Source: Phormidesmis sp.
GTDB taxonomy: Bacteria; Cyanobacteriota; Cyanobacteriia; Leptolyngbyales; Leptolyngbyaceae
NCBI GenBank assembly: GCA_965248535.1
Contig: CBDFJR010000002.1
Coordinates: 512,001 to 576,000 of the forward strand
DNA length: 64,000 nt
Direction: 5' to 3'
A program made the translations under genes and the position numbers. Below the pieces are notes generated by a model that was not told where the DNA came from, made no database searches, and worked only from the letters and a program-made list of their open reading frames with translations. Positions 4,060 to 34,678 of the stretch are shown in pieces; the stretch's first letter is position 1, and every line of letters starts with the position of its first letter.

Positions 4060-4142
4060 CGCGGGATTGCGTTTTTTGTAAGCGATCGCTCCATGCTGCT
4101 TAACCCAGTGTGGGGCGATTGTTGTTTATGGATGATGCGATC

Positions 4143-5126
4143 ATGATTTCTTCAGTCAGCATTCCAAAGATCATTCTCGACACTGATCCCGGTGGAGACG
4201 ATATTTTTGCGCTTTTGTGGGTGCAAAGTTTGGTCAATCAAGGGTTGGCAGACCTGATCGCTATCACGGCCACGGCGGGCAACGTCTCCGCTCACAAGAC
4301 GTTTTCTAATGTCAGTCAGATTCTCAACTTGGTGGGGTCAGCCCCGATCGAGGTCGGCCAAGGAGTCTCTCTCGATCGCGACGCTAGCGACGATGCGGCC
4401 CACATTCACGGCAGCGATGGCATGGGCAACTTATCAAAGACGCTGCCACCGCCAACCCACGACTATCAAACCGCCCGCTATGCCGATGAGATTTTGATCG
4501 ACAAACTCACGCTTATGCCGGGAGAAATCACGCTGGTGGCGATCGGGCCTCTCACCAACTTGGCCGCCGCCGAAAAAAAGAGTCCGGGCATTCTCAAAAG
4601 AGCTAAAGAAATTGTGATCATGGGTGGCGGATTCTTCTGTCCTGGCAATGTCACCCCCCAAGCAGAATTTAACATCTGGTTTAACGCCGAAGCTGCCGAT
4701 GTGGTGTTGTCCAGTCGCGATGATGTGGTGATCCTGCCCCTGGATGTTACGAGAAATCTGATTTTCACACGAGAAATGGTGCAGACGATCGCTCCCCTTT
4801 CTTCAGCCAACGACAAGACTATTTTCATCAATCGTCTTTGCGAGTTTATGATCACCACCGCGATCGCTTATCGAGAAACCAACGGAGTTTCAGGATTTTT
4901 AGTCCACGATGCGGCCACGATCGGCTATTTGTTCTACCCCGAAACGCTGTTGATCAGCAGAGCCAGAGTTTGCATTGAGACGCGGGGTGAATGGACTCGC
5001 GGACAAACGGTAATCGATCGCCGAGGCGGAGCTAAACAGAGTGCAAATGCTTGGGTCGCGATGCAGGTTGACTCAACAGGATTTTTTGCCCGATTTATTG
5101 AAGATTTAAAGACGCTAGTGAGATAG
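4143..5126 (+). CDS. Inosine/uridine-preferring nucleoside hydrolase
   Basis: IILDTDPGGDD, HIHGSDGMG, IGPLTNLA, AEFNIW and VHD motifs. Start uncertain (4110-4143). Confidence 0.92.
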   Translation: MISSVSIPKIILDTDPGGDDIFALLWVQSLVNQGLADLIAITATAGNVSAHKTFSNVSQILNLVGSAPIEVGQGVSLDRDASDDAAHIHGSDGMGNLSKTLPPPTHDYQTARYADEILIDKLTLMPGEITLVAIGPLTNLAAAEKKSPGILKRAKEIVIMGGGFFCPGNVTPQAEFNIWFNAEAADVVLSSRDDVVILPLDVTRNLIFTREMVQTIAPLSSANDKTIFINRLCEFMITTAIAYRETNGVSGFLVHDAATIGYLFYPETLLISRARVCIETRGEWTRGQTVIDRRGGAKQSANAWVAMQVDSTGFFARFIEDLKTLVR

Positions 5127-16468: not shown

Positions 16469-18658
16469 ATGCCGATTCGCCCTCCAAATTTAGACGATCG
16501 CAGCTTTGATGATTTAGTCAACGAAGCGCTGGCGCGCATTCCTGCCCACACGCCCGAATGGACGCACGATCGGGTCGGCGACCCAGGACGCACGATCGTC
16601 GAGTTGTTTGCGTGGCTCACCGATACGCTGCTTTATCGCGCCAACTTGATCCCTGAACGGCAGCGATTGGCATTTTTGCGGCTGCTGGGTGTGCCGATGC
16701 GTCCGGCGCTGCCTGCTCAAGGCCTCGTCACCATCTCTGACGATCCCCAAGCGACCCAAGCCCTGATGCTGCAACCGTTGGCGACCGTTAAAGGAACCGT
16801 CAATTTTGAGACTCGTGCTGAAATGACGGTGTTTCCGGTCACGGCTGAACTTTATTACAAACGTCCGTTAGTTCCCACCGAAGCTGCAAAACTGGCCAAC
16901 ATTGTTCAAGGACTTCAGCAGGTTTATCAACTTCAAACTCCGGCGATTCCCTATGTGACCACGCCGATTTTTGCCGCCGCCAAACCTGAATCTCAAGGCT
17001 TTGATCTCGTTAAACAAACCATTGATCAGTGTGTTTGGATCGCCATTCTCGCGACGGAACCAAAATTTGTAGATGCAGCAAGACGGTCCCTCGGTCATAG
17101 TGCCGTGGGGCAACCTTTGCTGAATGTGGGCGTGATGCCCGCGACCGCCATCCCCGATTTATTTGAAGACATCGGCACTCGTGCCCGCATTCCTCACGTT
17201 TGGGAGATTAGCACTGGGCAAGAAATCGCCAATGTACCGCAATATCTAAGCCTGAATGTGATTGCCGATTCCACTGCGGGGCTGACGCGGCGCGGCGTTG
17301 TCAGGCTGGCGATGCCGTCACCGAATTATATCGGGGCACCGACCAACAATGTTCGAGATCGCCTCAACGCCGGAACGGGCGATCGTCCACCGCGCATTGA
17401 TGCGCCCGAAGTGGCGGCGCGACTGGTGACCTGGCTGCGGTTGCGTCCGAGTCGTCGCGATTTACAAACCCTGTCCCTAAGCTGGATGGGCATCAACGTA
17501 GTTGAGATTGACCAACGACAAACCCTGGCGGGGCGGGTGATTGGCGAAAGTGACGGCAGCGCTGACCAAGAATTTCAGCTACCCGGACAATCGATCGAGC
17601 CAACCACGCTGCAAATCCAAGTCGAGGAGGCGGGACGCGGCTATCAGCTTTGGCACCCGATCGACGATCTCGCCCTCGCCGGACAAAACGCTAGCGTCTA
17701 TCGGTTAGATAGCGAAGCGGGCACAATCCGCTTGGGCAACGGCATTCAAGGACAGATTCCTGAAGCCGGACGGCGAATTCGAGTGGCGTTGATGCGATCG
17801 GGCGGGGGAATCGCCGGAAATTTGCCAGCCGGATCGCTCAACAGCATTACGGCCACCGATTTGCAGGGCAATCTCGTCACCAAACTCAAGGTTCAGCAGC
17901 CGTTGCCGATGCAGGGCGGGGTTGAAAGTGAGACCCTAGCCGAAGCCGAAATTCGCATTCCGGGACTGTTTCGCCATCGCGATCGGGCGGTGACAGCCGA
18001 TGATTATCAGCGATTGGCGGCCGAGACTCCGGGGGTGCGGCTGGGTCGTGTCGAAGTGTTGCCAAAATTTAAACCGCAGCAGCGACGATTTGATATTCCG
18101 GGTGTGGTTTCAGTGATGGTGTTACCGTTCCAAGAGTCATTAGAGTTACCAAATCCGCGAGTGGATCGACCGCTATTAGAATCTGTACAGGCTTATTTAG
18201 ATTCTCGCCGTCCTTTAGCCACAGAACTCTATGTGATCGGCTGTGAATACATTCCCATTGGCATTAGCGTGGGCATTCAGATTCAAAACGGGTTTGGACA
18301 AGATGGTGTTTTATTAGCCGTGCGGAAGGCTCTGCAACGATTTCTGTTTCCGATCGCGCCCGGTGGCATTGATGAAAAAGGCTGGAGCCTAGGCAGAACG
18401 GTGAAAGCCAGAGAATTAGACGTGGTGGTAGCCAGAGTTCCGGGTGTCTTAGCCGTGTTGAATATTCGTCTGTTTCAGCAAATCGGCGCGACTGCTCGGT
18501 GGCAGTCGGTGTCTGAGGTCAGCCTCACCCCTTGGCAACTGCCCGAACTGCTGGCGATCGTGGTAGTTGCTGACGAAGATGCCCCCGACACGCTTGACCC
18601 GATTTCCTTTGGCGCTCAGTCAGGCGTTGCGGTTCCTGTCGTCCCGGAGGTGTGCTAA
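16469..18658 (+). CDS. Baseplate J-like wedge protein (Afp11-like)
   Basis: PNLDDRSFDDLV, PEWT...GDPGRT.VELFAWL, GESDG..DQ.F, GGG..GN and DRAVT..DY..LA motifs. Confidence 0.93.
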   Translation: MPIRPPNLDDRSFDDLVNEALARIPAHTPEWTHDRVGDPGRTIVELFAWLTDTLLYRANLIPERQRLAFLRLLGVPMRPALPAQGLVTISDDPQATQALMLQPLATVKGTVNFETRAEMTVFPVTAELYYKRPLVPTEAAKLANIVQGLQQVYQLQTPAIPYVTTPIFAAAKPESQGFDLVKQTIDQCVWIAILATEPKFVDAARRSLGHSAVGQPLLNVGVMPATAIPDLFEDIGTRARIPHVWEISTGQEIANVPQYLSLNVIADSTAGLTRRGVVRLAMPSPNYIGAPTNNVRDRLNAGTGDRPPRIDAPEVAARLVTWLRLRPSRRDLQTLSLSWMGINVVEIDQRQTLAGRVIGESDGSADQEFQLPGQSIEPTTLQIQVEEAGRGYQLWHPIDDLALAGQNASVYRLDSEAGTIRLGNGIQGQIPEAGRRIRVALMRSGGGIAGNLPAGSLNSITATDLQGNLVTKLKVQQPLPMQGGVESETLAEAEIRIPGLFRHRDRAVTADDYQRLAAETPGVRLGRVEVLPKFKPQQRRFDIPGVVSVMVLPFQESLELPNPRVDRPLLESVQAYLDSRRPLATELYVIGCEYIPIGISVGIQIQNGFGQDGVLLAVRKALQRFLFPIAPGGIDEKGWSLGRTVKARELDVVVARVPGVLAVLNIRLFQQIGATARWQSVSEVSLTPWQLPELLAIVVVADEDAPDTLDPISFGAQSGVAVPVVPEVC

Positions 18659-21190
18659 ATGGACGCAAACGGCCTGCGATTTTGGATGTTGGCAACTGCC
18701 GACCAGTGGACGAGTGTCAAGGATCTGCCGCCGCTTGAGTATGATCAGCCGTGTCAGCGCTTGCGTCTCGCCAGTGAGCGCCTTTTGCCGCCGTGGAGTC
18801 AGTCAACCTCTGAGCAAACGTCAGATACAGCGCTTTCTCGCTTAGAGCAGGTGCCGCAAACTTTGGATGGCTATGGCACACGAGCTTTTTGGGAGCCAAC
18901 ATCCGGCAAGATTTTGGCGACGGGCGCTCTGCCGCGATCGGTGCCCATTTTTACGCCCGAAGTGGGGAATCCGCCCACCGATTTGGCGATGGGTTACGAC
19001 GGCATTCTCTATATAGCGTTGCGATCGGGTGCCATCGTGCTGGTAGATCGCCGCGATCGCTGGTTGCCGATCACCCTCCAAACCGACGGCTTTAAAGCTT
19101 GGAGATTGGCGGCCGATCCGGCTGGAGGGGTTTGGGTATTGGATCGCGACGATCGCCAATTGGGAAAAGTGCTAGGCGTTCCCTTTCCGACCCAGCCCGC
19201 CGGAAAGTATGCTGACGATATTTTTCGCCCCTGTGATGAGAATCCCAATCCGCCCCGTTTAGTCGTTTGGCCAACGTCGAGCCTGCCCAGCGATGAAAAA
19301 TGGGTGGCGATCGCCACGAATCCCGACGGACATCTAGCATTGCTCACCTGGTTAAACGATGGAACGCCCAGAGTTCGCACGTTGCAATCTCACCAGTGGA
19401 CTGCTCCGATCGCTCTGATGGGCTGTCGCTATCCCTTTAGTTTGAGTTGGGTAGCGGTGGATCGAATCGCCGTTCTCGTCAGTGATTTGTTAACCGAGGC
19501 TCCCGTTTATGCCATGCCCAAACTGGCTATCGGTCAAGCTGAGGCGACCCAAGTGCAGCCTGTGGGCGATCTTTACCCGTTGCATGATCATACGGGCAAT
19601 CCTTTTTTACACGGCTTGAGTTTGCCGCCTCACTACCCAACTGCGATGGCAAGCGCGCCGCTTTATCCCCTTTCGCTGCCGTCTTATGCGCGTCAGGGAA
19701 CCGCGATTAGCGCTGGGCGCAACTCCGAAGGAACCGCTCCGACCCCTTTAGACAGTGGCAGTTTGCAAACCGAGTGGCATCGGCTCTATTTAGAAGCCGT
19801 TATTCCCGCTAAGGGTGAGATTCGGGTAGATTTAGCGGCGACCGATCAGCCGACCTTGCCCGATCAGCCGGAGTGGTTTGAGCATTGCTTTGGGGCAGTT
19901 CAATCGTCGGGTCTGCCCTGGGGCGCTTGGGTGTCTGCGCCGTCTGAGATTCCGTTTCATCCTGGTTTGTTGAGCGAGCGGGAAAAAGACCGATCGGGCT
20001 TATTTACGGTGCTGATTCAGCGGCACGATCGCCGGGTCAGAACGCTGCAAGGACGCTATCTCTGGGTGCGAGTGCGGATGGTTGGCGATGGGCGCACGAC
20101 TCCAGAATTAGCAGCGCTGCGCGTTTATGGATCACGATTTTCTTATGTTAATCACTATTTACCCGAACTTTATCGTGAAACCGTGTTCGGCAGCGATCGT
20201 GATGCTGTTACCGCCGCGACTCCGGCTGACTTTTTAGAGCGATTTTTAGCTAACTTTGAGGGAATTCTCACTCCCATTGAAGATCGTATTGCTAATAGTC
20301 ATCTTCTCACCGATCCTCGCACGACTTCTGAAGACGCGATCGAGTGGTTAGGAAGTTGGATCGGCATCACGTTTGATCCGGCTTATTCGTCGGCTCGTCG
20401 TCGCCGTCTAATCGAGGCTACGCCTTCACTCTATCGTCATCGCGGCACCTTACTGGGATTGCAGCAAGCCCTCGATATCGCCACCGATGGAGCCGTGAGC
20501 CGAGGCGCGATCGTCGTCTTAGAAGATTTTCGACTGCGCCGCACCTTTGCCACGATTTTAGGAGCCGATTTAGCCGACGAAACCGATCCCCTGCTGGCCG
20601 GATTGGTGATTAGCGGTAATTCCTATGTGGGAGATACGCTGTTTTTGGGTGACGACACGCGGCAGGAATTTTTAGCCCTATTTCGGGCAGACATTGAGAC
20701 AAATTCGTTTAAAAAACAGGCTGAAGAAACGGCGATCGCGGCATTTTTTGATCAGTTAGCCTATCGCACTACCATTTTTGTCCATTCAGAAGTCACGCCC
20801 CAGGATTTGGGCTTAATTCGTCGCGTCGTTGAGCTAGAAACCCCGGCTCACGTTTTGTCTCGCGTCGTGTCTGCGAGCAGTGCGTTAATGGTCGGCGTTG
20901 CCTCGCTGGTGGGCGTTGACACCTATCTCAGCGCTAAACCCAAGCCCCAGGCGGTTGCCCTCAACAAAAGTCAGGTAGGAGTGCGCGATCGCGTGCTGCG
21001 TCCTGCCAGTCTTGATCCCCGTTTAGAAGGAGGCATTGATGAACTTGAATCCGTTTCGCCACCCCCGATCGCGCTGCTTAAATCACGCCCGATCGCCGAG
21101 TTTGGACAGTCGTTTCAGCTAGATGGCAATCAGTCTCAGGCTTTCGACGGCCACACGATCGTGCACTACAAATGGACAAAATTACAATAG
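18659..21190 (+). CDS. Baseplate wedge / phage tail protein I-like protein with beta-rich N-terminus and C-terminal half-PKD
   Basis: YLPELYRE, FLERFLANFE..LT.IED.I, WLGSWIG, LYR.RGT..GL and ETPAH motifs. The C-terminus resembles the first half of a PKD domain. Confidence 0.85.
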   Translation: MDANGLRFWMLATADQWTSVKDLPPLEYDQPCQRLRLASERLLPPWSQSTSEQTSDTALSRLEQVPQTLDGYGTRAFWEPTSGKILATGALPRSVPIFTPEVGNPPTDLAMGYDGILYIALRSGAIVLVDRRDRWLPITLQTDGFKAWRLAADPAGGVWVLDRDDRQLGKVLGVPFPTQPAGKYADDIFRPCDENPNPPRLVVWPTSSLPSDEKWVAIATNPDGHLALLTWLNDGTPRVRTLQSHQWTAPIALMGCRYPFSLSWVAVDRIAVLVSDLLTEAPVYAMPKLAIGQAEATQVQPVGDLYPLHDHTGNPFLHGLSLPPHYPTAMASAPLYPLSLPSYARQGTAISAGRNSEGTAPTPLDSGSLQTEWHRLYLEAVIPAKGEIRVDLAATDQPTLPDQPEWFEHCFGAVQSSGLPWGAWVSAPSEIPFHPGLLSEREKDRSGLFTVLIQRHDRRVRTLQGRYLWVRVRMVGDGRTTPELAALRVYGSRFSYVNHYLPELYRETVFGSDRDAVTAATPADFLERFLANFEGILTPIEDRIANSHLLTDPRTTSEDAIEWLGSWIGITFDPAYSSARRRRLIEATPSLYRHRGTLLGLQQALDIATDGAVSRGAIVVLEDFRLRRTFATILGADLADETDPLLAGLVISGNSYVGDTLFLGDDTRQEFLALFRADIETNSFKKQAEETAIAAFFDQLAYRTTIFVHSEVTPQDLGLIRRVVELETPAHVLSRVVSASSALMVGVASLVGVDTYLSAKPKPQAVALNKSQVGVRDRVLRPASLDPRLEGGIDELESVSPPPIALLKSRPIAEFGQSFQLDGNQSQAFDGHTIVHYKWTKLQ

Positions 21191-21284
21191 TGGAGGTAAT
21201 AGAAACTACTACGCGGACTGAAATGCAAACTGGACAGTTCTTGATTGCAATCGATAAATTTTATAAATTCCTCAGGAGACTCTC

Positions 21285-21677
21285 ATGGCAGAAGCAGAAC
21301 TCAAACTTAATACGCCCGTCGAAACCACCGATCCCGTTTTAGTGGTCAAAGTCGATCCCGCTAATCCCTTATCCAACGGGGTGCACCGATTTCAGCTAGT
21401 CGTCGTCGATGACTCTGGCAATGAGTCAGATCCGGCGATCGTAGAAGTGATTATTCGCGACACGCAGCGACCCACGGCGGTGATCGATGCTCCCCAAACC
21501 GCCGAAACGGGACAGAGCTTTAAACTCAGTGGCGAACGATCGAGCGATGTGGCTCCCGGCAAAGTCGTTAAATATACCTGGACGATGATTCCGATTATTG
21601 AAAGACCGCCGATCCGACCCACGCCGCCGCTCACGCCGCCGATTATTCCGGTGCCGATTCGTCCTCCGATTCAATAG
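21285..21677 (+). CDS. Circularly permuted PKD/Ig-like protein with Pro-rich tail
   Basis: GVHRFQLVVVDDSGNES followed by PTAVIDAP....GQSFKLSGERSSD..GKVVKYTW; aggag RBS. Confidence 0.75.
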   Translation: MAEAELKLNTPVETTDPVLVVKVDPANPLSNGVHRFQLVVVDDSGNESDPAIVEVIIRDTQRPTAVIDAPQTAETGQSFKLSGERSSDVAPGKVVKYTWTMIPIIERPPIRPTPPLTPPIIPVPIRPPIQ

Positions 21678-21681
21678 CCCT

Positions 21682-21855
21682 ATGCCAACCTTTGAGCCGC
21701 AAAAACCGATCGTTACCGCTACCCCGATCGTGGTCGTCGATGCCAGCCTCGCGCCGGGTCGCTATCGCTTTCAGCTAGTGGTCGAAGACGATGCCGGAAA
21801 CCAAAGTCAGCCGACCGAGCAAATTGTTGTCATCAATCCCCCCAGGATTCGCTAA
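21682..21855 (+). CDS. 57-aa half-PKD protein, paralogue of the first half of 21285-21677
   Basis: MPTFEPQKPIVTATPIVVVDASLAPGRYRFQLVVEDDAGNQSQP. ATG at 21682 lies within ORF-track ORF 21598-21855. Confidence 0.75.
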   Translation: MPTFEPQKPIVTATPIVVVDASLAPGRYRFQLVVEDDAGNQSQPTEQIVVINPPRIR

Positions 21856-22724
21856 TGAGCACTTTTAAACCCCCCGATCCCCTAGCGGCTGCGCCTCTCT
21901 CGCCCGATCGCGTCTATTACGCAACTGGCGTTTCTCTCGACGCAGAAGACTTTTTGGCAGAGCAACTCTATCACCGCAGCCGCCTAGCCCGCGCTCTGTT
22001 CTATCTGCATGGCAGCGGCACCGCCGCCGGGCTGCGCGTTGATTGGAACAAAGCCTTAAAACCAGGAGACGATCCCAAGTTTCCTCAAGGGCGTGACGAA
22101 GAAATTGTCGTGCAGCCCGGCTTGGCGATCGACCGACTCGGACGATTAATTGAGCTTCCGCGATCGGCGTGCATTCGCGTTGATCGCTGGTATCAATCCC
22201 AAATTGCCGATGAGTTAACCAAAGGGTTTCATCTCGATCGGGGTGGCATTGTCGTGGATGTGTTTGTGCGATTCCTATCCTGTGAGCGCGGCAAAACTCC
22301 AGCGTTTGCGGCGGGGGCATTTGATGCGTTAGATGCAGTGATTCCGTCTCGGTTGCGAGATAGTTACGAATTGACCCTCGTGACTCGTCAAGAAGCCAGC
22401 GCCGATCTCAATCAACATCTGCCTCAAAACCCTTGGGGCGATTTTGGCACGGGCGATCGCAAGGCTGCTCTGCAAACCGCCATTCTCAACGCCTGGCACG
22501 AAGGCTCTGACCAGTGGGATAAAACCGGACTCAAGCCCCTGCCAGAACACGCCATCGGTCAAGATCCCACGGCGCTTTTTCTGGCTCGACTCGTGGTGCC
22601 TGCGGCGGCAGCCCTGCCAGAACAACGCCCCGTTCGCACCGCAGATGCCACGATCGTGCCCGACAATTCTCAGCGATCGTTTGTCTACGCGGCTGGGGCG
22701 ATCGCTCGTTGGTTAGCGCTCTAA
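21855..22724 (+). CDS. CIS fibre/crown-like protein 1
   Basis: DRVYYATGVSLDAEDFLAEQLYHRSR...HGSGTAAGLRV...VQPGLAIDRLGRLI baseplate-attachment-type motif. Confidence 0.7.
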   Translation: MSTFKPPDPLAAAPLSPDRVYYATGVSLDAEDFLAEQLYHRSRLARALFYLHGSGTAAGLRVDWNKALKPGDDPKFPQGRDEEIVVQPGLAIDRLGRLIELPRSACIRVDRWYQSQIADELTKGFHLDRGGIVVDVFVRFLSCERGKTPAFAAGAFDALDAVIPSRLRDSYELTLVTRQEASADLNQHLPQNPWGDFGTGDRKAALQTAILNAWHEGSDQWDKTGLKPLPEHAIGQDPTALFLARLVVPAAAALPEQRPVRTADATIVPDNSQRSFVYAAGAIARWLAL

Positions 22725-22778: not shown

Positions 22779-24668
22779 ATGTTTACTCAAGGTTCTTCTC
22801 GCTCTCGCGTTGACGCTGCCGAACTCGCCGCCATGATTCAGGCAGGAACGGTAATTCTCGACGATCGCCGCACGCGCCCATTCTATTTTGATGGTCGATT
22901 TTTAACGGCGAAAGATCTCACCCGCGACCAAAACTACTTTCTGACCCGACAGACCGATCTGGCGCGGGCGAGTGGGTTTGGCATTGTGCAGGGTCTGTTG
23001 GTCAAGCGTCCGCCTAGCAATGCTGCCAGCGCCATCTATATCGAAGCGGGGCACGGAGTCACCCCCGGCGGCGAACTGGTGGTTTTGCCCCAATCGCGCA
23101 CGGTTAACCTAGTAGACATTCCTGAGATTCAGCGCTTAGATGCGGCGTTTGGGCTGGCTCCGGTGCCGCGAGAATCGGCTCGAAATGCGTCTGGGTTGTT
23201 TGTGATTGCGCTGCGATCGGTGGAATACACTGCGAACCCGATCGCGTCTTATCCGACCTCGCTGACGGCACCCCGATCGGTGAATGATGGCGACATTATC
23301 GAGGCGGTGGCGATCACGCTGATTCCCTATGCTGACAGCGGCGGTGGCGGATTAGAGGCGCGGAGATCGCGGGTGGCACGAGATATTTTTGTCGAAGGAT
23401 CGGTGCGCGGGTTGCCTGCCAATGCGCTGCCCCTGGCGATGGTGGGCTTAAATCGCGGCGTGGTCGAGTGGATTGATCCCTATTTGGTGCGGCGAGAAGT
23501 GGGGGCCGAGCAAAAAAGTCTGTTGAGCTTTGGGGCAACCCCTCGCGGTCTGCGAGAAGCCTATGTGCAGCAATATGATCAGCAGTTGCAGGAGGTGTTG
23601 CAGTCGCGCAGCCAGAGCAATCAAGGGCGACGATTTAGCGCCACCGATTATTTTGCGGCCTTGCCTCCGGCGGGTCAGATGCCCAGCGCCACGATCGACC
23701 CCACGAATTTCACGCAGATCTATTTTCCCTCCACGGTGGATGTCAGTCTCTCGCTGGTGCCCTCTGATGAGTTGGCGGCCCTGGTTGAGGAGAGTCTGCT
23801 GTTGCCCCCGATCGATCTAACAATGACGAACGAAGCCCTCGATTCCGTCGGCGTTTTGGTGTTGATGCCCGTCAATCGTCAACAGTTTCAGCAATTGCAG
23901 GGGACTCTGAGCAGCCTGACCCGATCGCTGCCTGCGGTCGCTCCCGGATTGGTGGCAAAACGCACGCCGCTGCTGTCATTGCAGCAGATTCGGCTGCCCC
24001 GATCGCCGATCCCGATCGTCAATCCTCAAGAGTTGGTTGATGCAGAATGGCGCAAAGCCTTAGCGAGTTCAGATCTACTCTGGTTTATTCGCAGACGCAA
24101 CTTGCCCTATCACGCGACAAATGTTGGATTTAATATTCGCATTGTGACCAATGAAGTGATCACTGAACGAAATTTAGTCACGACGCTCAATCAAGCAGGA
24201 TTACTCAGTCGGGTAAACACGATTAGAAACACGGCAACCGCCGCAGCGAATGCAGATGTGACATCGCTATTGAGTTCTCCAAAACTCACAGGTTCCAAAC
24301 TGCTGTTGAGCGGTGCGATTAAAGAATTAGAAGCGGCAAAAACCAATGACACTTCTACTGATCAGCCATCAGAAAAACTCGATCAAGCCGGAGTGCTGCA
24401 AGTCTCTAATCGCTTTGGTGATCCTAAGCTGGGAGAAGGAATTCTGCGGTTAGAGGCGACCAATTCTCAGCTAAAAGATGACACGATCGCGGCCACTGTT
24501 GCCCAATCTGGCACCATTCCCGAACTCGATCGCTTGTCGAGTCAGCTTTCAGACACAGAACTGCGAACGTTTTCATCCCAATTAACTGACGTTGCCAGAA
24601 CCAATCCCAGCGGCGTTGGCAATTTGATTAAAACGACTTTAAACAACCGATCGGGAGGGCTGCGATAA
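22779..24668 (+). CDS. CIS fibre/crown-like protein 2
   Basis: RPFYFDGRFLTAKDLTRDQNY...GFGIVQGL.V...IEAGHGVT.GGE, the same N-terminal module. Confidence 0.7.
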   Translation: MFTQGSSRSRVDAAELAAMIQAGTVILDDRRTRPFYFDGRFLTAKDLTRDQNYFLTRQTDLARASGFGIVQGLLVKRPPSNAASAIYIEAGHGVTPGGELVVLPQSRTVNLVDIPEIQRLDAAFGLAPVPRESARNASGLFVIALRSVEYTANPIASYPTSLTAPRSVNDGDIIEAVAITLIPYADSGGGGLEARRSRVARDIFVEGSVRGLPANALPLAMVGLNRGVVEWIDPYLVRREVGAEQKSLLSFGATPRGLREAYVQQYDQQLQEVLQSRSQSNQGRRFSATDYFAALPPAGQMPSATIDPTNFTQIYFPSTVDVSLSLVPSDELAALVEESLLLPPIDLTMTNEALDSVGVLVLMPVNRQQFQQLQGTLSSLTRSLPAVAPGLVAKRTPLLSLQQIRLPRSPIPIVNPQELVDAEWRKALASSDLLWFIRRRNLPYHATNVGFNIRIVTNEVITERNLVTTLNQAGLLSRVNTIRNTATAAANADVTSLLSSPKLTGSKLLLSGAIKELEAAKTNDTSTDQPSEKLDQAGVLQVSNRFGDPKLGEGILRLEATNSQLKDDTIAATVAQSGTIPELDRLSSQLSDTELRTFSSQLTDVARTNPSGVGNLIKTTLNNRSGGLR

Positions 24669-27600
24669 TGGACGTGAATCCGATTAAAAAATCGCTCAAC
24701 GGTGAGCATATTGTGGATGTCTCTCCGCCCATGCAGCCCGATGCTAATTTAGGCTGGCAGCGTCGCCTTAATTTGTATTCTGGACGGGCCCTCAGCGATC
24801 GGGCTTTAATCACCGAACAACAGGGACGATCGGGCATTTTGGCAACGCGGGGACAGTTGCTCTCTCCGGGCGTGATCACGGGGCTAGAAGTCGATCTAGA
24901 ACAACCGGATTCAACCCATTATCAGATTGCGGCGGGCACAGGTGTGACGGCAATGGGCGAAGATGTCTTGATCCCTAGAACGCTGAGAGTGGCGGCGCAG
25001 GATCTTCGAGTCTATGCGGCGGCGGCGATTTTAGACGGAGCAACGCCAGCGCCAACGCCAACGCCAACCGGAATCTTAACGCCGCGAAAATTAGGGAAAA
25101 CGCTAGGAGAATTAATCACTAACGGCATTGCTGCGACACTGCCACGAGTCGGAATCCTAGTCCTTCAGCCGATCGTAGCAGAACTAGTCGGACGCAACGA
25201 CCCCAAAGATTCCTGTGAGACAGATCCCCAAAATGATGCCTTTGAAGATTGGCAAATTGTGGATGGCTGCCGCCTAGTGCTCTATCCTTGGGCTTCTGAG
25301 TGGCTGGCACTGCCCGAAGCAGGCGATCTCACGCCTCCAACCGCCCTGGGACGGTGGCGAAATCGGTTAGCTTACACAATTTTTAGTGCTGAAAAAGCCA
25401 ACACGCCTGATCAGCTATTGCCCTGGGAACAGGTCGGAGTGCCGATCGCGCTGGTCGGATTTGATGCCGCCTGGAAGCCGTTGTTTAGCGATCGCTACTC
25501 TGTGGTGCGGGCTGGCGGTCTGCCCAAACGTCGCCATCCGCTAGTTGCCAATGCAGGAAGTCCATTTTTGTGGCAGGCGCGAGTTCAGCAGTTTGCCGAA
25601 CAGCTATCAGAGCTTGACCTGGCAACGGTTTCGATCTCGCAAGTGGCCGACCAATTTCTCTCGTTGCCGCCCGTGGGAATCTTGCCTACATCCGCGATCG
25701 AGGTGCGATCGTCCAATCCCAGCTTGGGGCAAAATCACTTCTTCCCCAGTTCTTATCAGATTCAAGCGGCTCCCGTTCCCCTAGAACAACTGGATGCTGT
25801 TTTAGAATCGAGTGCGTCCCTCGTGCCCTTTGATGTGTCTAAACCCGATCAGGTGCAGGTTTTAGTGCCCGTTCCGCAAGCGTGGTATGAGCCTGATTTG
25901 CTCAAAACAGAAGCCGTCGATTCGGAGTTTCAGCGCACGATCGATCAGATGGTGATTCGGCGATCGCAATGGCTCAATCGTCGCACGATCGTGCGATCTC
26001 GCAACACGCTGATTGCTCAAGCGATCACCGGAACTGCGCCAGACTATGCCGACCCCGATCGCTTAGAAGACGAACTCGCCCAGCCGCCCACACCGTTCAC
26101 TAGCACTCGCGCTCACCAATCCAATTTAGCCTCTGGGCTGCATCAACATTTTTTTGATGGCGCAACCGCCGGATTGGTTGTCGCGACGGGCGATCGCTTG
26201 ACCACCTATATTTACCTCGATCCTGATCATCCGCCCCGCGAAATCATGGTGCAGTGGAACGTCGGCGGAAGCTGGGAGCATCGCGCCTATTGGGGTGAAA
26301 ACTTACTTAATCTCGGCATTGCCGGAACCGCCAGCCGTCAATTTTTGGGAACACTGCCCGCGATCGCATCCTGGGTGCGGTTAGAAGTGCCTGCCAGTCT
26401 GGTCGGGCTAGAAAACACAACCGTCACCGGACTCTCCTTCACGCTCTATGATGGTCGCGCCGCTTGGGGACACACGGGCAAATCGGCGATCGGTGCTCTG
26501 CCCGCCAACGACACAGTTTGGGTGGGCGACACGCTGCCAGCCGGAGCAACGCCGCGCACTAACAACGATGCTTGGACGTGGATTCAAGATGCTGAGTTGC
26601 TCACGCCTTTTGAAGAAGATTTTGCCACCGCCGTTGCCAACAATGTCAGAGGCGTTACGCCCTTGCAAACGTTGAACAGTCAACTCGCCGCGCAGCTTCC
26701 CGCCGAAGCCAGCCAACTCACCACGCTGGGACTCGAACGGTTTATCGCTCTTCTTGACACCAAAGTTAAGCAAGCCAACGATCGCATCGACTTCCACTTT
26801 TTGCGAGTGCAAACCGATATTTATCGAATTCGTCAGTTTGTGTTGGGCACCGCTCAAGCGGCTCGATTGGCCACGTCTCCGACACTGGCGGCGATCGCTG
26901 AAGGCGGTCAAAGTGCCCGCGTCACGCAAGAGCAGCTAAACACCTTCTTTACTCGTGCCAAGTCTACCGCGTCAGTTCCGGTGGGTGCAACATCTCCAAG
27001 TTTCACCATTTTGGCGGCAGAAAATGTCCAGTTTGCGGCGGCTCCCCGCAAGGCAGCATTGGTCGAACCCCTGTTCACGCAGACCGCTTTCACTAACTTT
27101 AGTGATGTCGGGTTTGCAAAAACCTCCGCCTTTGAACTCAAACAAACCCAAAACACTCAAACTCGCATCGGGGTGATCAATGAGCAAACGGCTGATAACA
27201 CAGAGCTATTTGCTTCTAAACAAGTTTTTCAGCCCAGCGCTGTTGACGTGTTAGAACAGTCGCCCTTGGTCGGTGCCGCCAGTCGCACTGTGACAGTTGC
27301 CGAACGGCTGCAAGCCTCTGCCTCAGTCGAAGCCAGAAACTTCACCCTGTCGAGTCGGGCAGACACGATCGAGAGTCTCGCTGATCTGGGGGTCGATCTC
27401 GGTGAGGTGAGCATTCCGGGCACTACGTCTAAATTCAAAGACGTGAATGCCGCGCTGCTCAAGCAGATTCGGTTAGGCGACACGCTGACCAGCACCGATG
27501 AATCCGCGCAGTTTTCCGATGGGGTGAAAGTGTTAGACAACACGGTTGCCGCGCTGCGATTGGCAGAAGGACGGGTGCAAGATTATCGCACGGCGATCGT

Positions 27601-28885
27601 CGCTTGTCAGATGGTGCTGACGCAGCTTCGGGGCGTAGTCGGTCAGATCAATCAACGTCTGAGCGCGATCGCAAATTATTTGGCAGAGGTCCGCCATGAT
27701 GTCGCAGTAGCGCGGGCTTTACTCGCTGAAGAACAACTGCGAATTGACGGCATTAATCAACGTCGCGATGCCATCTTGCAGCAATATGTGACGTTTTTGG
27801 TGTTTCATCGGCTGCGATTTACTCAAGTCATTCTCGATGCGCCGACTCGTCCGCTTGATCCGGGCATCACATCTTCACCGATTCCGGTCTGCCTGAATCG
27901 TGAGATTGCGGTTCCGGCGGCGCTGCGATCGCTGACCGAGACCTTGCGAGATGCGCCTGTGAAGTGGTTTACTCACATTCCTCGTTTGATTGATCGGCTC
28001 GATCGCTTTGAGACGATTTTTGCCACCCTGCAAGGAGCCAAGCAGCGCGCTATTCGGTCTTATTCGGCTGACATGGTGAATGTCACTTCGACGGCAACTC
28101 AGCTAGGGCAGCGCATTCAGCAGACGGTGACGACTCAGCGCACCTCTATGGCGGCGGCGCGATCGCAAGTGGCTCAACTCAATCTCAGTCTCTATTCGGG
28201 GCTAACCTGGACTCAACTGCGAGACCAATCAACGGCTGTTCTTTCTCTCGGAGACTTGATCGATGGCGGTCACGGACGTAGCGATGTGTCTCAGCGCGCC
28301 GCCCAAGAACTGGATCAAATTGCTCACGTTGCGGCTTGTTTATATGCCAATTTTGGCGACGTGTTGCCCGTGATTCGCTTAGAGTGGGCGGAGCGTCTGA
28401 GCCAATATGATGCCCCCGTCAACCTGCGAAATCTAGCGAGTTTACCTCGTTGGGGCGAGATTGCTCTGTTAGATCGCCGCGAAATTCAAACAATAGTGGA
28501 TTGGCTTTATCAACAGATTGACGCACTTCAGCCTGATGCTGTGGCGTTGATCAGCGATCTCGTGCGGGTCTGCATTTTGTTGGCGAGTCATGCACCTGTG
28601 AATCAAATTATTGCGGGTCGGTTGAGCAAACCGACGATCGTCAATTTGGGCAGCCGAGTCGAACTCGCGATCGACGCTGCAACGGTGAGAGTTGGGATGC
28701 AAGTGTTGCTCTATTCAGCGCTGAATCGCGTGGTGGCTCAGGGTGTGGTCGAAGATTTAGCATCGGGTCAAGCATCGGCTCGAATTGTTCATGCCTACGA
28801 GACGAATGTGCAGTTAGCAGCAGATTCGCGAGTGCAGTTTGCCGAAATTGGTGCATTTAACAAGACTCTGATTGCCCGATCGTGA
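24668..28885 (+). CDS. Large CIS fibre/crown-like protein 3 with inserted Trp-rich beta domain and coiled coil
   Basis: RRLNLYSGRALSDRALITEQ...PGVITGLEV...IAAGTGVTAMGEDV; 1405 aa; TAATG coupling to the previous gene. Confidence 0.7.
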   Translation: MDVNPIKKSLNGEHIVDVSPPMQPDANLGWQRRLNLYSGRALSDRALITEQQGRSGILATRGQLLSPGVITGLEVDLEQPDSTHYQIAAGTGVTAMGEDVLIPRTLRVAAQDLRVYAAAAILDGATPAPTPTPTGILTPRKLGKTLGELITNGIAATLPRVGILVLQPIVAELVGRNDPKDSCETDPQNDAFEDWQIVDGCRLVLYPWASEWLALPEAGDLTPPTALGRWRNRLAYTIFSAEKANTPDQLLPWEQVGVPIALVGFDAAWKPLFSDRYSVVRAGGLPKRRHPLVANAGSPFLWQARVQQFAEQLSELDLATVSISQVADQFLSLPPVGILPTSAIEVRSSNPSLGQNHFFPSSYQIQAAPVPLEQLDAVLESSASLVPFDVSKPDQVQVLVPVPQAWYEPDLLKTEAVDSEFQRTIDQMVIRRSQWLNRRTIVRSRNTLIAQAITGTAPDYADPDRLEDELAQPPTPFTSTRAHQSNLASGLHQHFFDGATAGLVVATGDRLTTYIYLDPDHPPREIMVQWNVGGSWEHRAYWGENLLNLGIAGTASRQFLGTLPAIASWVRLEVPASLVGLENTTVTGLSFTLYDGRAAWGHTGKSAIGALPANDTVWVGDTLPAGATPRTNNDAWTWIQDAELLTPFEEDFATAVANNVRGVTPLQTLNSQLAAQLPAEASQLTTLGLERFIALLDTKVKQANDRIDFHFLRVQTDIYRIRQFVLGTAQAARLATSPTLAAIAEGGQSARVTQEQLNTFFTRAKSTASVPVGATSPSFTILAAENVQFAAAPRKAALVEPLFTQTAFTNFSDVGFAKTSAFELKQTQNTQTRIGVINEQTADNTELFASKQVFQPSAVDVLEQSPLVGAASRTVTVAERLQASASVEARNFTLSSRADTIESLADLGVDLGEVSIPGTTSKFKDVNAALLKQIRLGDTLTSTDESAQFSDGVKVLDNTVAALRLAEGRVQDYRTAIVACQMVLTQLRGVVGQINQRLSAIANYLAEVRHDVAVARALLAEEQLRIDGINQRRDAILQQYVTFLVFHRLRFTQVILDAPTRPLDPGITSSPIPVCLNREIAVPAALRSLTETLRDAPVKWFTHIPRLIDRLDRFETIFATLQGAKQRAIRSYSADMVNVTSTATQLGQRIQQTVTTQRTSMAAARSQVAQLNLSLYSGLTWTQLRDQSTAVLSLGDLIDGGHGRSDVSQRAAQELDQIAHVAACLYANFGDVLPVIRLEWAERLSQYDAPVNLRNLASLPRWGEIALLDRREIQTIVDWLYQQIDALQPDAVALISDLVRVCILLASHAPVNQIIAGRLSKPTIVNLGSRVELAIDAATVRVGMQVLLYSALNRVVAQGVVEDLASGQASARIVHAYETNVQLAADSRVQFAEIGAFNKTLIARS

Positions 28886-28913: not shown

Positions 28914-30302
28914 ATGAAACGCCATGTTCACACGGTTCGTCTGCGATCGCATGATGAAGCCCTGATTCATCAAGGGGCTGTGTTGTTAGAAGATGCGCTG
29001 CACACGGCATCGTTGCCCGAAAGTGGGCGGCTGTTGGTGGTGCGATCGCTGAATGTTGGCAAGATTCACAGTCAGCACAGTTCGGCGACGTTGGCTCTTG
29101 TGGTAGAGCAACAATTGGCGCAGATTGGCATGATGGCAGTTCATGCTGAAGATCCGGTGGCAAAGGATGCGATCGCGGTCTATTTTCGAGATTCAATCGA
29201 GCCTTATCTTTGTCTGGCGGTGAGGTTAGCAAATCACCGCAGCACCGAGGAATGGTTTTGGCGGTTAGCGGTGGTGAACTGGCAGCCTCATTTGTCTAGA
29301 GAAGAAGGATTGCGACGGGTGCTTTATGGGGTAATGCAGACGGCGATCGGGGTCGCTGCGATCGTGCCTTTAATGCAGGAGTTATTGGCTAAAAGTTCAA
29401 TCATGCCAATGCTTTTGGCGCTGACTGAGAAAGACGGATCTGCTTTATTGCAGGTCTGCGGATGGATACAATCAGAGACTCCAATTGGATTAATAAATCC
29501 ATTATCAATTTCATTCTTATCCAGAGATTGGATTGATTTACTTCAGCATTGGGTTGCGGTTTGGGGTGTTGAAGATGCCCGATCGCTTTGGTTGACTACT
29601 ATTGTTCTACTTGCAGAACAACCTGCGTTTAGGATCGATCCGCAGTTGATTGCCCGATCGCAGCAGATCATTCAACAAATTAGCGATTCTAGAAAGTTGT
29701 ATTTGTCTGATCAGTCAGTGTTAATGGAGAATCCAGCTACGATTATAAGAAGTTTTCCCTTAGTGTTAAACGAATCATACTTATCCAGCAATAGTTTATC
29801 ACTTCAGAATTCTTCTTTAGATCCTCATCGATTTATAGATACTCCTCAATTAACGGTATTTGCCGGATTATTTTTCCTGTTACCTTTAATGACTTACTTA
29901 AAAATCGAATCCTTTTTAGAATCGAATCCTCATTTAATTGAGTTTGATTTACCTGGAATGTTGCTCTATACGATCGCTCAACGATTAGATATTCCTGAAA
30001 CCGATCCCGTTTGGGAGGCATTGCCTGAACCTTCAAACGATTTCATAGACTCCACTTTGCTTCGCTCTTGGCTCAACTCAATGCGGCGCTGGTGCCGTCT
30101 CAATGCCGAAATGGGACTACACAATTTAGTGACTCGATCGGGGCAGATTTTAATCACCCGCACCCACCTTGATATCTGGTTTAACCCGCAGCAAGCCGAC
30201 CTGCGGATTCGTCGCATCGGACTAGATCTCAATCCGGGTTGGGTGCCCTGGTTTGGACGAGTCGTTGCCTTTCACTACACAGGAGCCGGGTATGGAAATT
30301 GA
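28914..30302 (+). CDS. Tape-measure-like protein (Afp14-like)
   Basis: FAGLFFLLP and R.G.I....THLD..F....DL.IRR.GLD.NPGWVPW C-terminal motifs; lies immediately before the ATPase. Confidence 0.6.
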   Translation: MKRHVHTVRLRSHDEALIHQGAVLLEDALHTASLPESGRLLVVRSLNVGKIHSQHSSATLALVVEQQLAQIGMMAVHAEDPVAKDAIAVYFRDSIEPYLCLAVRLANHRSTEEWFWRLAVVNWQPHLSREEGLRRVLYGVMQTAIGVAAIVPLMQELLAKSSIMPMLLALTEKDGSALLQVCGWIQSETPIGLINPLSISFLSRDWIDLLQHWVAVWGVEDARSLWLTTIVLLAEQPAFRIDPQLIARSQQIIQQISDSRKLYLSDQSVLMENPATIIRSFPLVLNESYLSSNSLSLQNSSLDPHRFIDTPQLTVFAGLFFLLPLMTYLKIESFLESNPHLIEFDLPGMLLYTIAQRLDIPETDPVWEALPEPSNDFIDSTLLRSWLNSMRRWCRLNAEMGLHNLVTRSGQILITRTHLDIWFNPQQADLRIRRIGLDLNPGWVPWFGRVVAFHYTGAGYGN

Positions 30303-32313: not shown

Positions 32314-34476
32314 ATGGAACCCACCCCAACTCAATCGCCCGAATCTGTTCAACAAAGTCAGCAACTAATTCCGGCTGACAATCAATTGGATGGGTTAGAC
32401 AACGAGCGCGGAGCAACCGCCGGAATGCCGTTGTATTTGCAGCGATCGGGCAATGCTCCCGTGCAGCGAGAAGATAGTTTGCCCCCAGTTCCCAATTTTC
32501 AGCTTACACCGCCCTCTCTGCTTACACCGCTCGATCCAACATCACGCTATAGCCTGGGTTTGAACTATCACCTCGATCCAGATCTGCCATTGACCCTTAA
32601 ACAAGATACTCAACAATTATTAGATCTCGCTATTCTCAGACCTCAATTAGAACAGATTGATCTCGGAACGACGCTACCAACCTTTCTCCCCAAGCGTCCC
32701 GTCACGCCAGAAAAGTCTGCTGCGGTGCCTTCAGAGCAGCCACCAACGACTCCCCGATCGGCAGATGCGGGCGACCTCCTCAAAGCGGTTGTGGTCAAAC
32801 TTGACCCTACTCTAACGACGTTAAAAACCCGTGTCGGCGATCGGGCCGAGTCAGACTGGCGACACCTCAATCGCGGCGAAAAAGTGGGAGTAGTCAGCGC
32901 CTTTACCGTCATTGGTGGCGGAGCGCTGGCGGGCATTATCTCCGACCCCGAAGCGCGACGACTTTCCCTCGGTCTACTCGATGGCAAAGTCCTGCCAGTG
33001 CCCAAACTAGACTGGCTCAATCTGGAGATCAACACCAAAGGCAACAATTTGATGCTGGGGCTGCACCTCGATGTCGGGCAACTGTTGCCATCGGTTTTAG
33101 GGTTCCGCGCCTCGTCACCCAAAGCGATCGGGGTGCCGCAGTCAGCACCCGTTCCCAGTCAGCGCACGATTCAGCGCAGTGCCCAGTCTACAACCGAGAG
33201 CACTGATGGCTCGATCGGGCAGCGCATTCAATCCGCATCGGGGAGCGGAGATTCTTTAGACTCAGGCATTCAGCAGCATTTAGAACAAAACTTAGGAGCC
33301 GATCTGTCAAAGGTGCAGATTCACAACAACCGAGAAGCCGATCAGTTGTCACGATCGGTGAATGCGATCGCGTTTACCACCGGGCAAGATATTTTCTTTA
33401 GTGCGGGCAGTTATGACCCCCGATCGTCCCAGGGTCAGCAGTTGATTGCCCATGAAGTCGTGCATACCGTGCAGCAAGCCAGCGGAGCCGTCGCAGGTGT
33501 TCCGACCGCAGAGGGTGTTGCGATTAGTGACCCGGCTGACGCATTTGAGCAAGAAGCCGATCGCGTGGCTCAACAGGTGATGACATCACCGCAACCCTCA
33601 AATCCGGTGAGGCAGTCCAGTTCATCTCATCTGTTTAGAAAACCACTGGCGCTCTTTCAGCCTGACGGCACCGAAAAAGATTGGTTTGCCGACGATATGA
33701 ATCGTTGGGGAACAGACATCGGAAGACTGGCGACGACGACCAACACCTTTGTGAAAGCTGCCATTTTCAACACCAAGAATAACAACCCTGAAGAGTATGT
33801 GACGATCGCCCAACGCAGTGCCTACTATGATGTCATCGATGCGTTAGCCGCCGAGGGAATTTTGCCCAAGAAGGTGAGATTTTTTGGAGCGGCGGCCAAA
33901 GTCACCAATCGCAATAGTGTCGGCAGCATTGAGGGGGCGATCGGCTGGAGTCTTCATTCTAAAGAGGCGCTGCAAGTGCTTAAAGATGTCAACAAACTCC
34001 TGTTTGATTCCAACATCAAAATAATCAATCGTCTGATCAGTCAAGGTAAGCCGACCGATCCCAAAGATCCTACTTCAACCGCCGCGCTGTCACCCATGCA
34101 GTTTGACCTCAACATGGTGGATGTCGAACAGGGCATTGTCGAAACCTACCTCAAGGGCAAAACAGCGTCGCTGTCTGACGAAGCAATTAAAGATATTAAT
34201 GATGATCTCAACTTCAAAGGGTTGATTAGAACGTTGGGACAATACACCGTTGCCAGCACTCAGGCCCTAGACTGGGCAAAAGCCGCTCTCGGCAAAGACA
34301 CGCTGGATTTTATGCAAAAGGGCGATCGGGTCGCGATCGGCAAAGCTCTCGTCTTCTTTTTGCACGCCAACACCCTCGACGAATATAAGTCATTCGTCAA
34401 AAGCGGGACTACGCCAGTTGATCATTTAAAGGAAGATTATCGCAATGCCTTCTCAATGGGAATTGACCCCAAATAA
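32314..34476 (+). CDS. DUF4157 (eCIS core) cargo protein with unknown N- and C-terminal domains
   Basis: LGADLSKVQIH...A.AFTTGQDIFF..G.YDP.S..GQ.LIAHEVVHTVQQ...S.P.DAFEQEADRVA. Confidence 0.9.
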   Translation: MEPTPTQSPESVQQSQQLIPADNQLDGLDNERGATAGMPLYLQRSGNAPVQREDSLPPVPNFQLTPPSLLTPLDPTSRYSLGLNYHLDPDLPLTLKQDTQQLLDLAILRPQLEQIDLGTTLPTFLPKRPVTPEKSAAVPSEQPPTTPRSADAGDLLKAVVVKLDPTLTTLKTRVGDRAESDWRHLNRGEKVGVVSAFTVIGGGALAGIISDPEARRLSLGLLDGKVLPVPKLDWLNLEINTKGNNLMLGLHLDVGQLLPSVLGFRASSPKAIGVPQSAPVPSQRTIQRSAQSTTESTDGSIGQRIQSASGSGDSLDSGIQQHLEQNLGADLSKVQIHNNREADQLSRSVNAIAFTTGQDIFFSAGSYDPRSSQGQQLIAHEVVHTVQQASGAVAGVPTAEGVAISDPADAFEQEADRVAQQVMTSPQPSNPVRQSSSSHLFRKPLALFQPDGTEKDWFADDMNRWGTDIGRLATTTNTFVKAAIFNTKNNNPEEYVTIAQRSAYYDVIDALAAEGILPKKVRFFGAAAKVTNRNSVGSIEGAIGWSLHSKEALQVLKDVNKLLFDSNIKIINRLISQGKPTDPKDPTSTAALSPMQFDLNMVDVEQGIVETYLKGKTASLSDEAIKDINDDLNFKGLIRTLGQYTVASTQALDWAKAALGKDTLDFMQKGDRVAIGKALVFFLHANTLDEYKSFVKSGTTPVDHLKEDYRNAFSMGIDPK

Positions 34477-34491
34477 CCGATTAGAACTACT

Positions 34492-34632
34492 CAGTACGGG
34501 CATGGCATCGCCGCGCCCCTTGACCCTGCATAGTACGGGCATGGCATTGCCGCGCCCATTGACCCAGTACGGGCATGGCATCGCCGCGCCCATTGACCCA
34601 GTACGGGCATGGCATTGCCGTGCCCATTGACC
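34492..34632. repeat. Four tandem 34-bp REP-like palindromic units
   Basis: (c/t)agtacgggcatggcat(c/t)gccg(c/t)gccc(a/c)ttgacc at 34492, 34531, 34565 and 34599; each contains a GGGCATGGC/GCCGYGCCC hairpin. Confidence 0.9.
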
Positions 34633-34678
34633 TTGCAACTAACCAACATTATTAATAGACAATTCCTAGGAGCGCCCC

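Follow-up and report, generated by a model that had tools for sequence, protein, structure and literature searches.

Why should three neighbouring genes each encode only part of the same kind of domain? The question is raised by positions 18,659 to 21,855 of a 64,000-nucleotide stretch of Phormidesmis sp. DNA (contig CBDFJR010000002.1; the whole stretch is called the window below). The genes lie on the plus strand and encode, in order, an 843-amino-acid baseplate wedge protein (the wedge), a 130-amino-acid protein (the adaptor; 21285-21677) and a 57-amino-acid protein (the cap), with a 94-nucleotide spacer between the first two genes and 4 nucleotides between the last two; the frame of the cap gene differs from that of the adaptor gene, and its stop codon overlaps the following ATG (TAATG). 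Profile searches confirmed that the C-terminus of the wedge is the first half (H1) of a K319L-type PKD domain, that the adaptor consists of a second half (H2) followed by another H1, and that the cap is an H2 only (Table 1). This is the arrangement given in a preliminary description of the locus, and both Pfam and half-domain profiles bear it out; the open reading frames (ORFs) and sequences were also as described there, apart from the start of the 57-amino-acid protein, which is 21682 and not 21683. We consider it likely that the halves complement one another in trans, and give an even chance to the default product being a defined three-chain stalk, with two PKD domains, on the Cis12 wedge.

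The half-domain profiles were hidden Markov models (HMMs) made from relatives of the 130-amino-acid protein, and H1 was taken to be strands A-B-C by analogy with PKD domains. Pfam placed the same halves within its own families, with adaptor residues 61-100 giving the PKD_4 match listed in Table 1, adaptor residues 22-57 matching the end of Big_13 (positions 65-100 of 102), cap residues 24-47 matching PKD_4 positions 58-80 of 85 and cap residues 21-50 matching K319L-like_PKD positions 55-84 of 84. The cap matches just the final third of PKD_4, K319L-like_PKD and Big_13. The adaptor H1 and the cap H2 match complementary parts of the PKD profile, so that the two chains together cover it. All adaptor and cap matches to Pfam stay below gathering score, which is what half domains should give: as whole domains (PF18911, PF22352) the adaptor reached 23.3 bits for PKD_4 and 18.9 bits for K319L against a gathering cut-off of 27, and the cap 16.8 and 15.9 bits, respectively.

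The cut falls after strand C, in the loop written Y.W...|M..., and leaves about 45 and about 55 residues on its two sides. Taken together, the adaptor H1 residues past Y.W and the cap residues that precede the F-strand motif come to roughly the canonical loop length, and the cut would therefore be a clean break in the C-C' loop. In an Ig-like (immunoglobulin-like) sandwich divided there, each sheet would draw strands from both halves. As judged from its family profile, which in the solved KIAA0319L tandem array (6nz0_Z, E 1e-8) covers the latter part of one PKD domain, crosses the linker and enters the domain that follows, the adaptor is a tandem-PKD repeat with its register shifted by half a domain. 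Unsplit PKD repeats, five to seven per protein, are found in the secreted proteins P0242, P0243 and P0244 (879-1013 amino acids); their identity to the adaptor is 44-58% (58% in P0242), and within each chain an adaptor-type H2 comes after an adaptor-type H1. In P0244 the H2 units are by turns of a long and a short type. Since the two halves are contiguous in these proteins, they can build one domain, and arrays of this kind may be the source of the half-shifted adaptor. An AlphaFold2 model of the adaptor monomer, made with an alignment, had a predicted template modelling score (pTM) of 0.44, with strands of at least three residues in the H2 half only, and a Foldseek search with this model gave no match in the PDB at E<=1e-3, the best local matches being about 31 columns of Ig and FN3 modules. 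Taken together, these two model-based results would count, weakly, against a self-complemented circular permutant. Among solved structures, none contains the wedge, the adaptor or the cap.

The same division recurs widely. At E<=0.01, 252 relatives of the adaptor were found (71-228 residues), most of them 100-102 residues long and 55-65% identical. The exact H2-H1 order is present in all 120 adaptor relatives listed, H2 starting at residue 1 in 109 of them and none showing an H2-H1-H2 arrangement; in an alignment of 22, the chains stop right after the Y.WTLL motif unless a Pro-rich tail follows. The last 204 residues of the wedge have 630 relatives at E<=1e-3, and among the best 120 of these, 113 end in H1 no more than 8 residues from the C-terminus and have no H2, five have a divergent H1 recognised by eye, two stop just short of H1, and not one has a whole PKD domain. 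Fused halves were absent from the homologues examined (the best 120 wedges and the 120 listed adaptor relatives). Because it recurs to this extent (113 of 120 wedge homologues, 120 of 120 listed adaptor relatives), the half-domain pattern lies far beyond chance, and by these comparisons it is a conserved design and not gene decay. Fused ORFs in L050, L054, L066 and L069 (loci of the survey described below) had been considered as unsplit ancestors and were dropped: Pfam identifies the ORFs of L050 and L054 as generic PKD-repeat proteins and that of L069 as a beta-helix protein, and with no Tail_P2_I match those three do not count as wedges.

A locus survey with one genome per species yielded 69 loci, 61 of which, together with the window, make 62 with an adaptor. 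These divide into 39 triads (wedge-H1, H2-H1 adaptor, H2-led protein), 9 adaptor+cap pairs, 13 lone adaptors and one adaptor at a contig end; the co-conservation of the three-gene pattern, which had been proposed as a check on the preliminary description, is thus seen in 39 of 62 adaptor loci. In the triads, the upstream C-terminal H1 motif was recognised by pattern in 38 and by eye in one, and a downstream H2-led ORF was found at E<=1 in all 39. They occur in Cyanobacteria, Chloroflexota, Acidobacteriota, Proteobacteria (alpha-, beta- and gamma-), Nitrospirota, Verrucomicrobiota, Gemmatimonadota and Fibrobacterota. The adaptor is rare inside the window's own phylum, where it was absent at E<=1e-15 from 300 other sampled genomes, and the family has no member in IMG/VR viral contigs or INPHARED phages.

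The window locus is an extracellular contractile injection system (eCIS) of the Afp/PVC-like kind. A family scan (Pfam) of 26 window proteins placed Pvc16_N, Phage_sheath_1, T4_gp19 (two genes), CIS_tube, Phage_GPD, Phage_base_V, GPW_gp25, Baseplate_J, Tail_P2_I, AAA and eCIS_core in one cluster. Against the NCBIfam equivalog model CIS12_fam (NF053768), the wedge scored 144.4 bits (E 5.3e-42, residues 461-760) and missed the curated cut-off of 860 bits; it is related to the CIS12 family but is no equivalog. The genes 3' of the cap match the CIS13 fibre N-terminus, which places the adaptor and the cap between cis12 and cis13-like genes, and a homologue of the 289-amino-acid Cis13-like protein also comes after the cap in L052.

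What we propose about binding, stoichiometry and stalk function is drawn from this anatomy and from comparative genomics. The wedge C-terminus, strands A-B-C, would be unable to fold alone, and the adaptor's N-terminal H2, strands C'-E-F-G, would complete it, forming PKD domain 1 on the wedge. The adaptor closes with a further H1, which the H2-only cap would complete to give PKD domain 2. A three-chain, two-domain stalk would in this way stand on each of six wedges, with the Pro-rich tail projecting at its tip. Gene order matches chain order and the genes lie close together, so that assembly is probably aided by translation from one mRNA; that operon gene order suits ordered assembly has been argued in general terms (PMC4742563, in part). 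The preliminary description had gone further and proposed an anchor-polymer-cap fibre. Trans complementation and the order wedge, 130-amino-acid protein, 57-amino-acid protein are supported by comparative evidence, because 39 of 62 loci keep the pattern, no homologue examined has its halves fused and the adaptor profile spans a tandem-PKD junction (6nz0_Z); its polymer step survives as a competing explanation that we hold only tentatively.

Several observations weigh against the three-chain stalk. A mirror-tree comparison over 28 loci, from which six near-duplicates had been dropped (L004, L005, L006, L039, L058 and L062), gave r of 0.48-0.59 for all six pairs of the four half-sets; the highest value belonged to the adaptor's own two halves, and the proposed partners were not singled out. 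The wedge C-terminus has no Pfam match at E<=1, and the protein search within its own genome reached just E 0.05. A strict 1:1:1 product also leaves it unexplained that fusion is never seen. Furthermore, adaptors occur without any wedge in the 13 lone (orphan) loci and the 9 adaptor+cap pairs of the 62, and the existence of such wedge-less adaptors means that the family is not strictly a Cis12 accessory and that the halves must be satisfied in some other way.

The lone genes, for adaptors of about 101 amino acids with H2-H1 order, are those of L011, L012, L014, L016, L017, L019, L024, L029, L032, L033, L036, L041 and L043. They stand in unrelated neighbourhoods in Acidobacteriota, Burkholderiales, Nitrospira and one Pseudoxanthomonas metagenome-assembled genome, with the adaptor at about 3970-4300 in most, and they cluster as clades in a rough midpoint-rooted BLOSUM62 neighbour-joining tree without support values. 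Five orphan genomes were searched with adaptor, cap and wedge-end profiles, and neither a wedge homologue nor a further H1-only or H2-only partner was found in any of them; in four orphan genomes no half domains were seen near tube genes (neighbourhoods of 12-20 kb). In orphan genome G004, one match (E 1.2e-4) at first suggested a partner ending in H1, but it fell on a complete PKD-like domain in the interior of a secreted subtilisin-like protease. The adaptor+cap pairs without a wedge are L034, L040, L045, L046, L048, L060, L025, L044 and L061; in the first six of these the two genes overlap by 25 nucleotides and the cap has an amphipathic-helix-like tail. A gp19-type tube gene was not found in four of the five pair genomes searched. 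Such stand-alone adaptors raise a separate question, namely what role a half-plus-half Ig protein has by itself.

The translation signals differ between the genes. The spacer and ribosome-binding site reported for the 130-amino-acid gene are present in the window (Table 1), and the conserved part of the spacer is limited to the GGAGACTC(T/C)CATG Shine-Dalgarno block, found in four of four close relatives. In one close relative (L006, about 3880-3970), an insertion of about 90 nucleotides with a C5/G5 palindrome lies in the wedge-adaptor spacer; it is missing from the window, L004 and L005. A promoter and terminator scan of 20900-22000 gave nothing above chance, with no terminator-like site and one weak promoter-like site at 21231-21260. 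Across the survey, adaptors have Shine-Dalgarno matches of at least 5 nucleotides in 51 of 62 loci and caps lack any in 34 of 44; of the two signals, that of the adaptor is stronger in 36 of 44 loci and weaker in one. The window cap has no Shine-Dalgarno sequence upstream. M1 is present without exception in the 22 aligned adaptors and in 35 of 35 caps. A strong Shine-Dalgarno sequence stands at the wedge start in eight of the nine loci with an identifiable wedge start, and in the window the GGAGGT for the wedge gene sits inside the last Baseplate_J codons (18640-18661), where the wedge ATG abuts the Baseplate_J stop. Gaps from wedge to adaptor have a median of about 27 nucleotides and are short in many loci. 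Many of the junctions had been considered as a single in-frame stop with readthrough, an idea that was dropped once real ATG starts were used and the gaps came out mostly at 2-60 nucleotides.

These signals bear on what else the split might be. That it is an artefact or a case of decay, through a frameshifted or broken gene or through one polypeptide made by readthrough or frameshifting, is scarcely credible. The cap frame is open upstream into the adaptor tail (an 85-amino-acid ORF, 21598-21855), with the two genes 4 nucleotides apart, and in several loci the three ORFs share a frame and are separated by short gaps; however, the cut points are conserved in 113 of the best 120 wedges and in all 120 listed adaptors, M1 is invariant in adaptors and caps, adaptors carry Shine-Dalgarno sequences, and in the window 94 nucleotides separate wedge and adaptor, the wedge frame closing after two codons and a TAA at 21264 closing the adaptor frame. 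A second possibility, which we regard as improbable, is that the adaptor needs no partner: it might, for example, close head to tail into a dimer in which both PKD domains are complete, and stay off the wedge, whose H1 would be completed directly by the cap. Orphan adaptors for which no partner halves were found would suit this, as would L071, where the wedge H1 comes directly before an H2-led protein, and a side-by-side antiparallel dimer is, by reasoning, geometrically possible with a short linker. It would nevertheless leave unexplained the position of the adaptor gene, which in 39 of 62 loci lies between those for the wedge and the H2-led protein, the distinct adaptor-H2 and cap-H2 classes, and the swap of the Pro-rich tail between adaptor and cap, as if both ended the same stalk.

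The polymer deserves closer attention, although we think it rather unlikely. Here the adaptor H1 would also accept the H2 of another adaptor, giving wedge-(adaptor)n-cap with n>1 and a length set by the adaptor:cap ratio, comparable to the FimA rod and FimI. Proteins of about 101 residues with H2-H1 order would then, conceivably, form a chaperone-free cytoplasmic polymer. On the baseplate the Cis12 C-terminus would nucleate it and either an H2-only cap or an H2-led binding module would terminate it, with Ig-like tentacles as the result; in genomes without a partner, orphans would form rings or filaments. The orphans speak for it: they make up 13 of the 62 adaptor loci and cluster as clades, and in five of five orphan genomes searched no wedge and no H1-ended or H2-led partner was found, so that the adaptor could pair only with itself. 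To these come the nine adaptor+cap loci without a wedge, four of five such genomes searched being without a gp19-type tube gene, the tandem-PKD proteins P0242-P0244 as a covalent equivalent, and core residues of H1 and H2 that are identical across the wedge, adaptor and cap classes. Shine-Dalgarno sequences that are strong on adaptors (at least 5 nucleotides in 51 of 62) and missing from 34 of 44 caps point the same way, the absence of fused forms from the homologues examined would fit a need for free subunits, and there is the pilus analogy (PMC12122975, in part). On the other hand, tandem adaptor genes occur in no locus, and gene order and short gaps (median about 27 nucleotides) fit a defined 1:1:1 chain; the wedge start has a strong Shine-Dalgarno sequence too (eight of nine) and the gaps are short, and an excess of adaptor over wedge does not follow. 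In L071 an H2-led protein is docked on the wedge without an adaptor, a 4-residue insertion in the adaptor H2 that is absent from the cap H2 could encode pairing specificity, and orphan adaptors could close into dimers and not filaments.

Returning to the three-chain stalk, the survey shows variety in its parts. Most triads have a Tail_P2_I wedge as the upstream H1-ended protein, with 23 of 33 scanned matching at E<=1e-4 and the alphaproteobacterial ones mostly missing the threshold; in the L020 clade its place is taken by an unrelated protein of 312-406 amino acids at the end of a tail-like cluster, and in L022 by a 766-amino-acid PASTA-rich protein (as a stop-to-stop ORF) with a baseplate-wedge fibre-network match. 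Downstream, bare caps have 53-63 residues, other caps have Pro-rich tails of up to about 90 residues, and those of the adaptor+cap pair class end in an amphipathic-helix-like tail. In L020, L021, L026, L042 and L064 the H2-led protein is instead 376-491 residues long and contains beta-propeller and TIG domains, and in L022 it is a PASTA protein. L071 has no adaptor: its Tail_P2_I wedge, which ends in H1, stands immediately before an H2-led FG-GAP protein. The cap position is accordingly a general docking position, which the preliminary description had missed and which in other loci holds beta-propeller, PASTA or FG-GAP modules; the H2-led proteins bearing these modules are candidate binding tips docked via the split domain. 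As a whole, the system looks like a socket (a C-terminal H1), plugs (an N-terminal H2) and an extension piece (H2-H1), in which the same H1 socket would take different H2-led plugs across bacteria and the adaptor would serve as the extension piece. With a bare cap, as in cyanobacteria, L035 and L067, the Pro-rich tail belongs to the adaptor; with a bare adaptor, it belongs to the cap. These tails, of 22-90 residues with RPxI/PPxP-like repeats, were noted in the window (21597-21674), L007, L013, L015, L018, L023, L031, L047, L056 and others.

Elsewhere in the window (32314-35953), an eCIS core-domain protein of 720 amino acids is followed by a 424-amino-acid protein with weak M12/reprolysin-like metallopeptidase matches, the latter being a possible payload candidate of the system. 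Two further proteins inside the cluster, of 1405 (24668-28885) and 462 (28914-30302) amino acids, matched no Pfam or NCBIfam family.

Table 1. Positions of the half-domain features, their neighbours and the H2-led genes of other loci (window coordinates unless a locus is named).
Feature	Position	Strand	Evidence
Wedge, Cis12-like baseplate wedge protein, 843 aa	18659..21190	+	Pfam Tail_P2_I, E 1.5e-7, 31.8 bits (cut-off 20.6 exceeded)
H1 at wedge C-terminus	21059..21187	+	H1 HMM, residues 803-842, E 3e-6
Wedge-adaptor spacer, 94 nt	21191..21284	.	AGGAG Shine-Dalgarno at 21274-21278, 6 nt 5' of ATG
Adaptor residues 1-58, H2	21285..21458	+	H2 HMM, E 8e-29 (HMM built including the adaptor sequence); Pfam Big_13
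Adaptor residues 59-104, H1 of second PKD domain	21459..21596	+	PKD_4 positions 2-40/85, E 6.7e-5; H1 HMM, E 1e-28
Adaptor residues 105-130, Pro-rich tail, then stop codon	21597..21677	+	Direct sequence reading
Cap, 57 aa, H2 only	21682..21855	+	H2 HMM, E 1e-15; ends of Pfam K319L-like_PKD and PKD_4
Cis13-like (tail-fibre N-terminal) protein, 289 aa	21855..22724	+	NCBIfam CIS13_fam, E 1.1e-8, under cut-off
Second protein with Cis13-like N-terminus, 629 aa	22779..24668	+	CIS13_fam, E 1.9e-6, residues 36-111, under cut-off
H2-led beta-propeller/TIG gene	L020 4304-5533		
H2-led beta-propeller/TIG gene	L021 4356-5483		
H2-led beta-propeller/TIG gene	L026 4316-5758		
H2-led beta-propeller/TIG gene	L042 4578-6050		
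H2-led beta-propeller/TIG gene	L064 4293-5483		
H2-led PASTA gene	L022 4308-4880		
H2-led FG-GAP gene	L071 3989-5320		

These findings suggest that contractile injection systems (CIS) have at their periphery an assembly principle so far unrecognised, in which a half-domain socket on Cis12-like proteins (630 homologues) would take exchangeable plugs. They also account for several hundred proteins of about 101 residues now called "hypothetical" or "PKD domain-containing", which are not whole domains and which domain libraries miss or label in part. If confirmed, the joint would provide eCIS particles, which have already been engineered via their fibres (PMC10097599, in part), with a natural docking port at which targeting modules could be exchanged, and would be a natural, non-covalent counterpart to engineered split-domain connectors. 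Should the polymer prove true, it would be a second independent natural way of building fibres from incomplete Ig folds, besides pili.

The domain type is shared with the arrays of KIAA0319L/AAVR (6nz0_Z) and P0242-P0244, in which the adaptor would run from the middle of domain n to the middle of domain n+1; those arrays are single polypeptides with whole domains, whereas in the present locus the chain breaks at the C-C' loop, half a domain out of register. In chaperone-usher pili, donor-strand complementation and exchange complete an incomplete Ig-like subunit with a single strand of the next subunit, and the subunits are exported with the help of a periplasmic chaperone and an usher, both of which are needed. 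The likeness lies in incomplete Ig-like folds completed by the next subunit and in the logic of anchor, repeat and terminator; the difference is that pili donate one strand and here it would be half a domain, the cut after strand C being far from the last-strand-only donation of pili. As read from the sequence, the N-termini of the adaptor (MAEAELKLN) and the cap (MPTFEPQKP) have no hydrophobic leader or signal peptide, and no chaperone or usher family was matched among the 26 window proteins scanned. In the type 1 pilus, the FimA rod is ended by a single FimI (PMC12122975, in part).

Among CIS, fibre docking on Tail_P2_I adaptors has been described for the eBAP3/5 groups of eCIS (PMC12923769, in part), and a Cis12 extension for the thylakoid-anchored CIS of Anabaena (PMC8894136, in part). 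As here, peripheral modules attach via the Tail_P2_I/Cis12 wedge, and eCIS fibres carry flexible chains of Ig/PKD modules. The main texts of these two papers contain the word "split" nowhere, and "PKD" appears zero times in PMC8894136 and four times in PMC12923769, as whole fibre modules. The remark that no such arrangement had been described in a CIS agrees with our searches of the literature on CIS baseplates and eCIS fibre domains, supplementary files being outside their scope, in which no split PKD in a CIS was found.

SpyTag/SpyCatcher, an engineered split of an adhesin domain (PMC5814910, in part), is alike in that an Ig-like domain in two parts reassembles and joins two proteins; it differs in being engineered, with a tag of about 13 residues and an isopeptide bond, whereas the present division is natural and cuts the domain in half, with nothing pointing to a covalent bond. 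A baseplate counterpart is found in phage Tuc2009, where, in a crystal structure, a 25-residue C-terminal hairpin of BppU completes the beta-sheet of the BppA Ig-like domain (PMC4742702, in part). Both cases concern baseplate proteins in which the C-terminal strands of one chain complete the titin/Ig-like beta-sandwich of the next and fix a peripheral module. In Tuc2009, according to the same source, the hairpin is added to a nearly whole domain, whereas here, as read from sequence, the domain is cut in the middle (three plus four strands), twice in series, with a dedicated half-plus-half adaptor. We would file the system under inter-chain Ig-fold completion, with the split PKD domain in a CIS as a variant of it.

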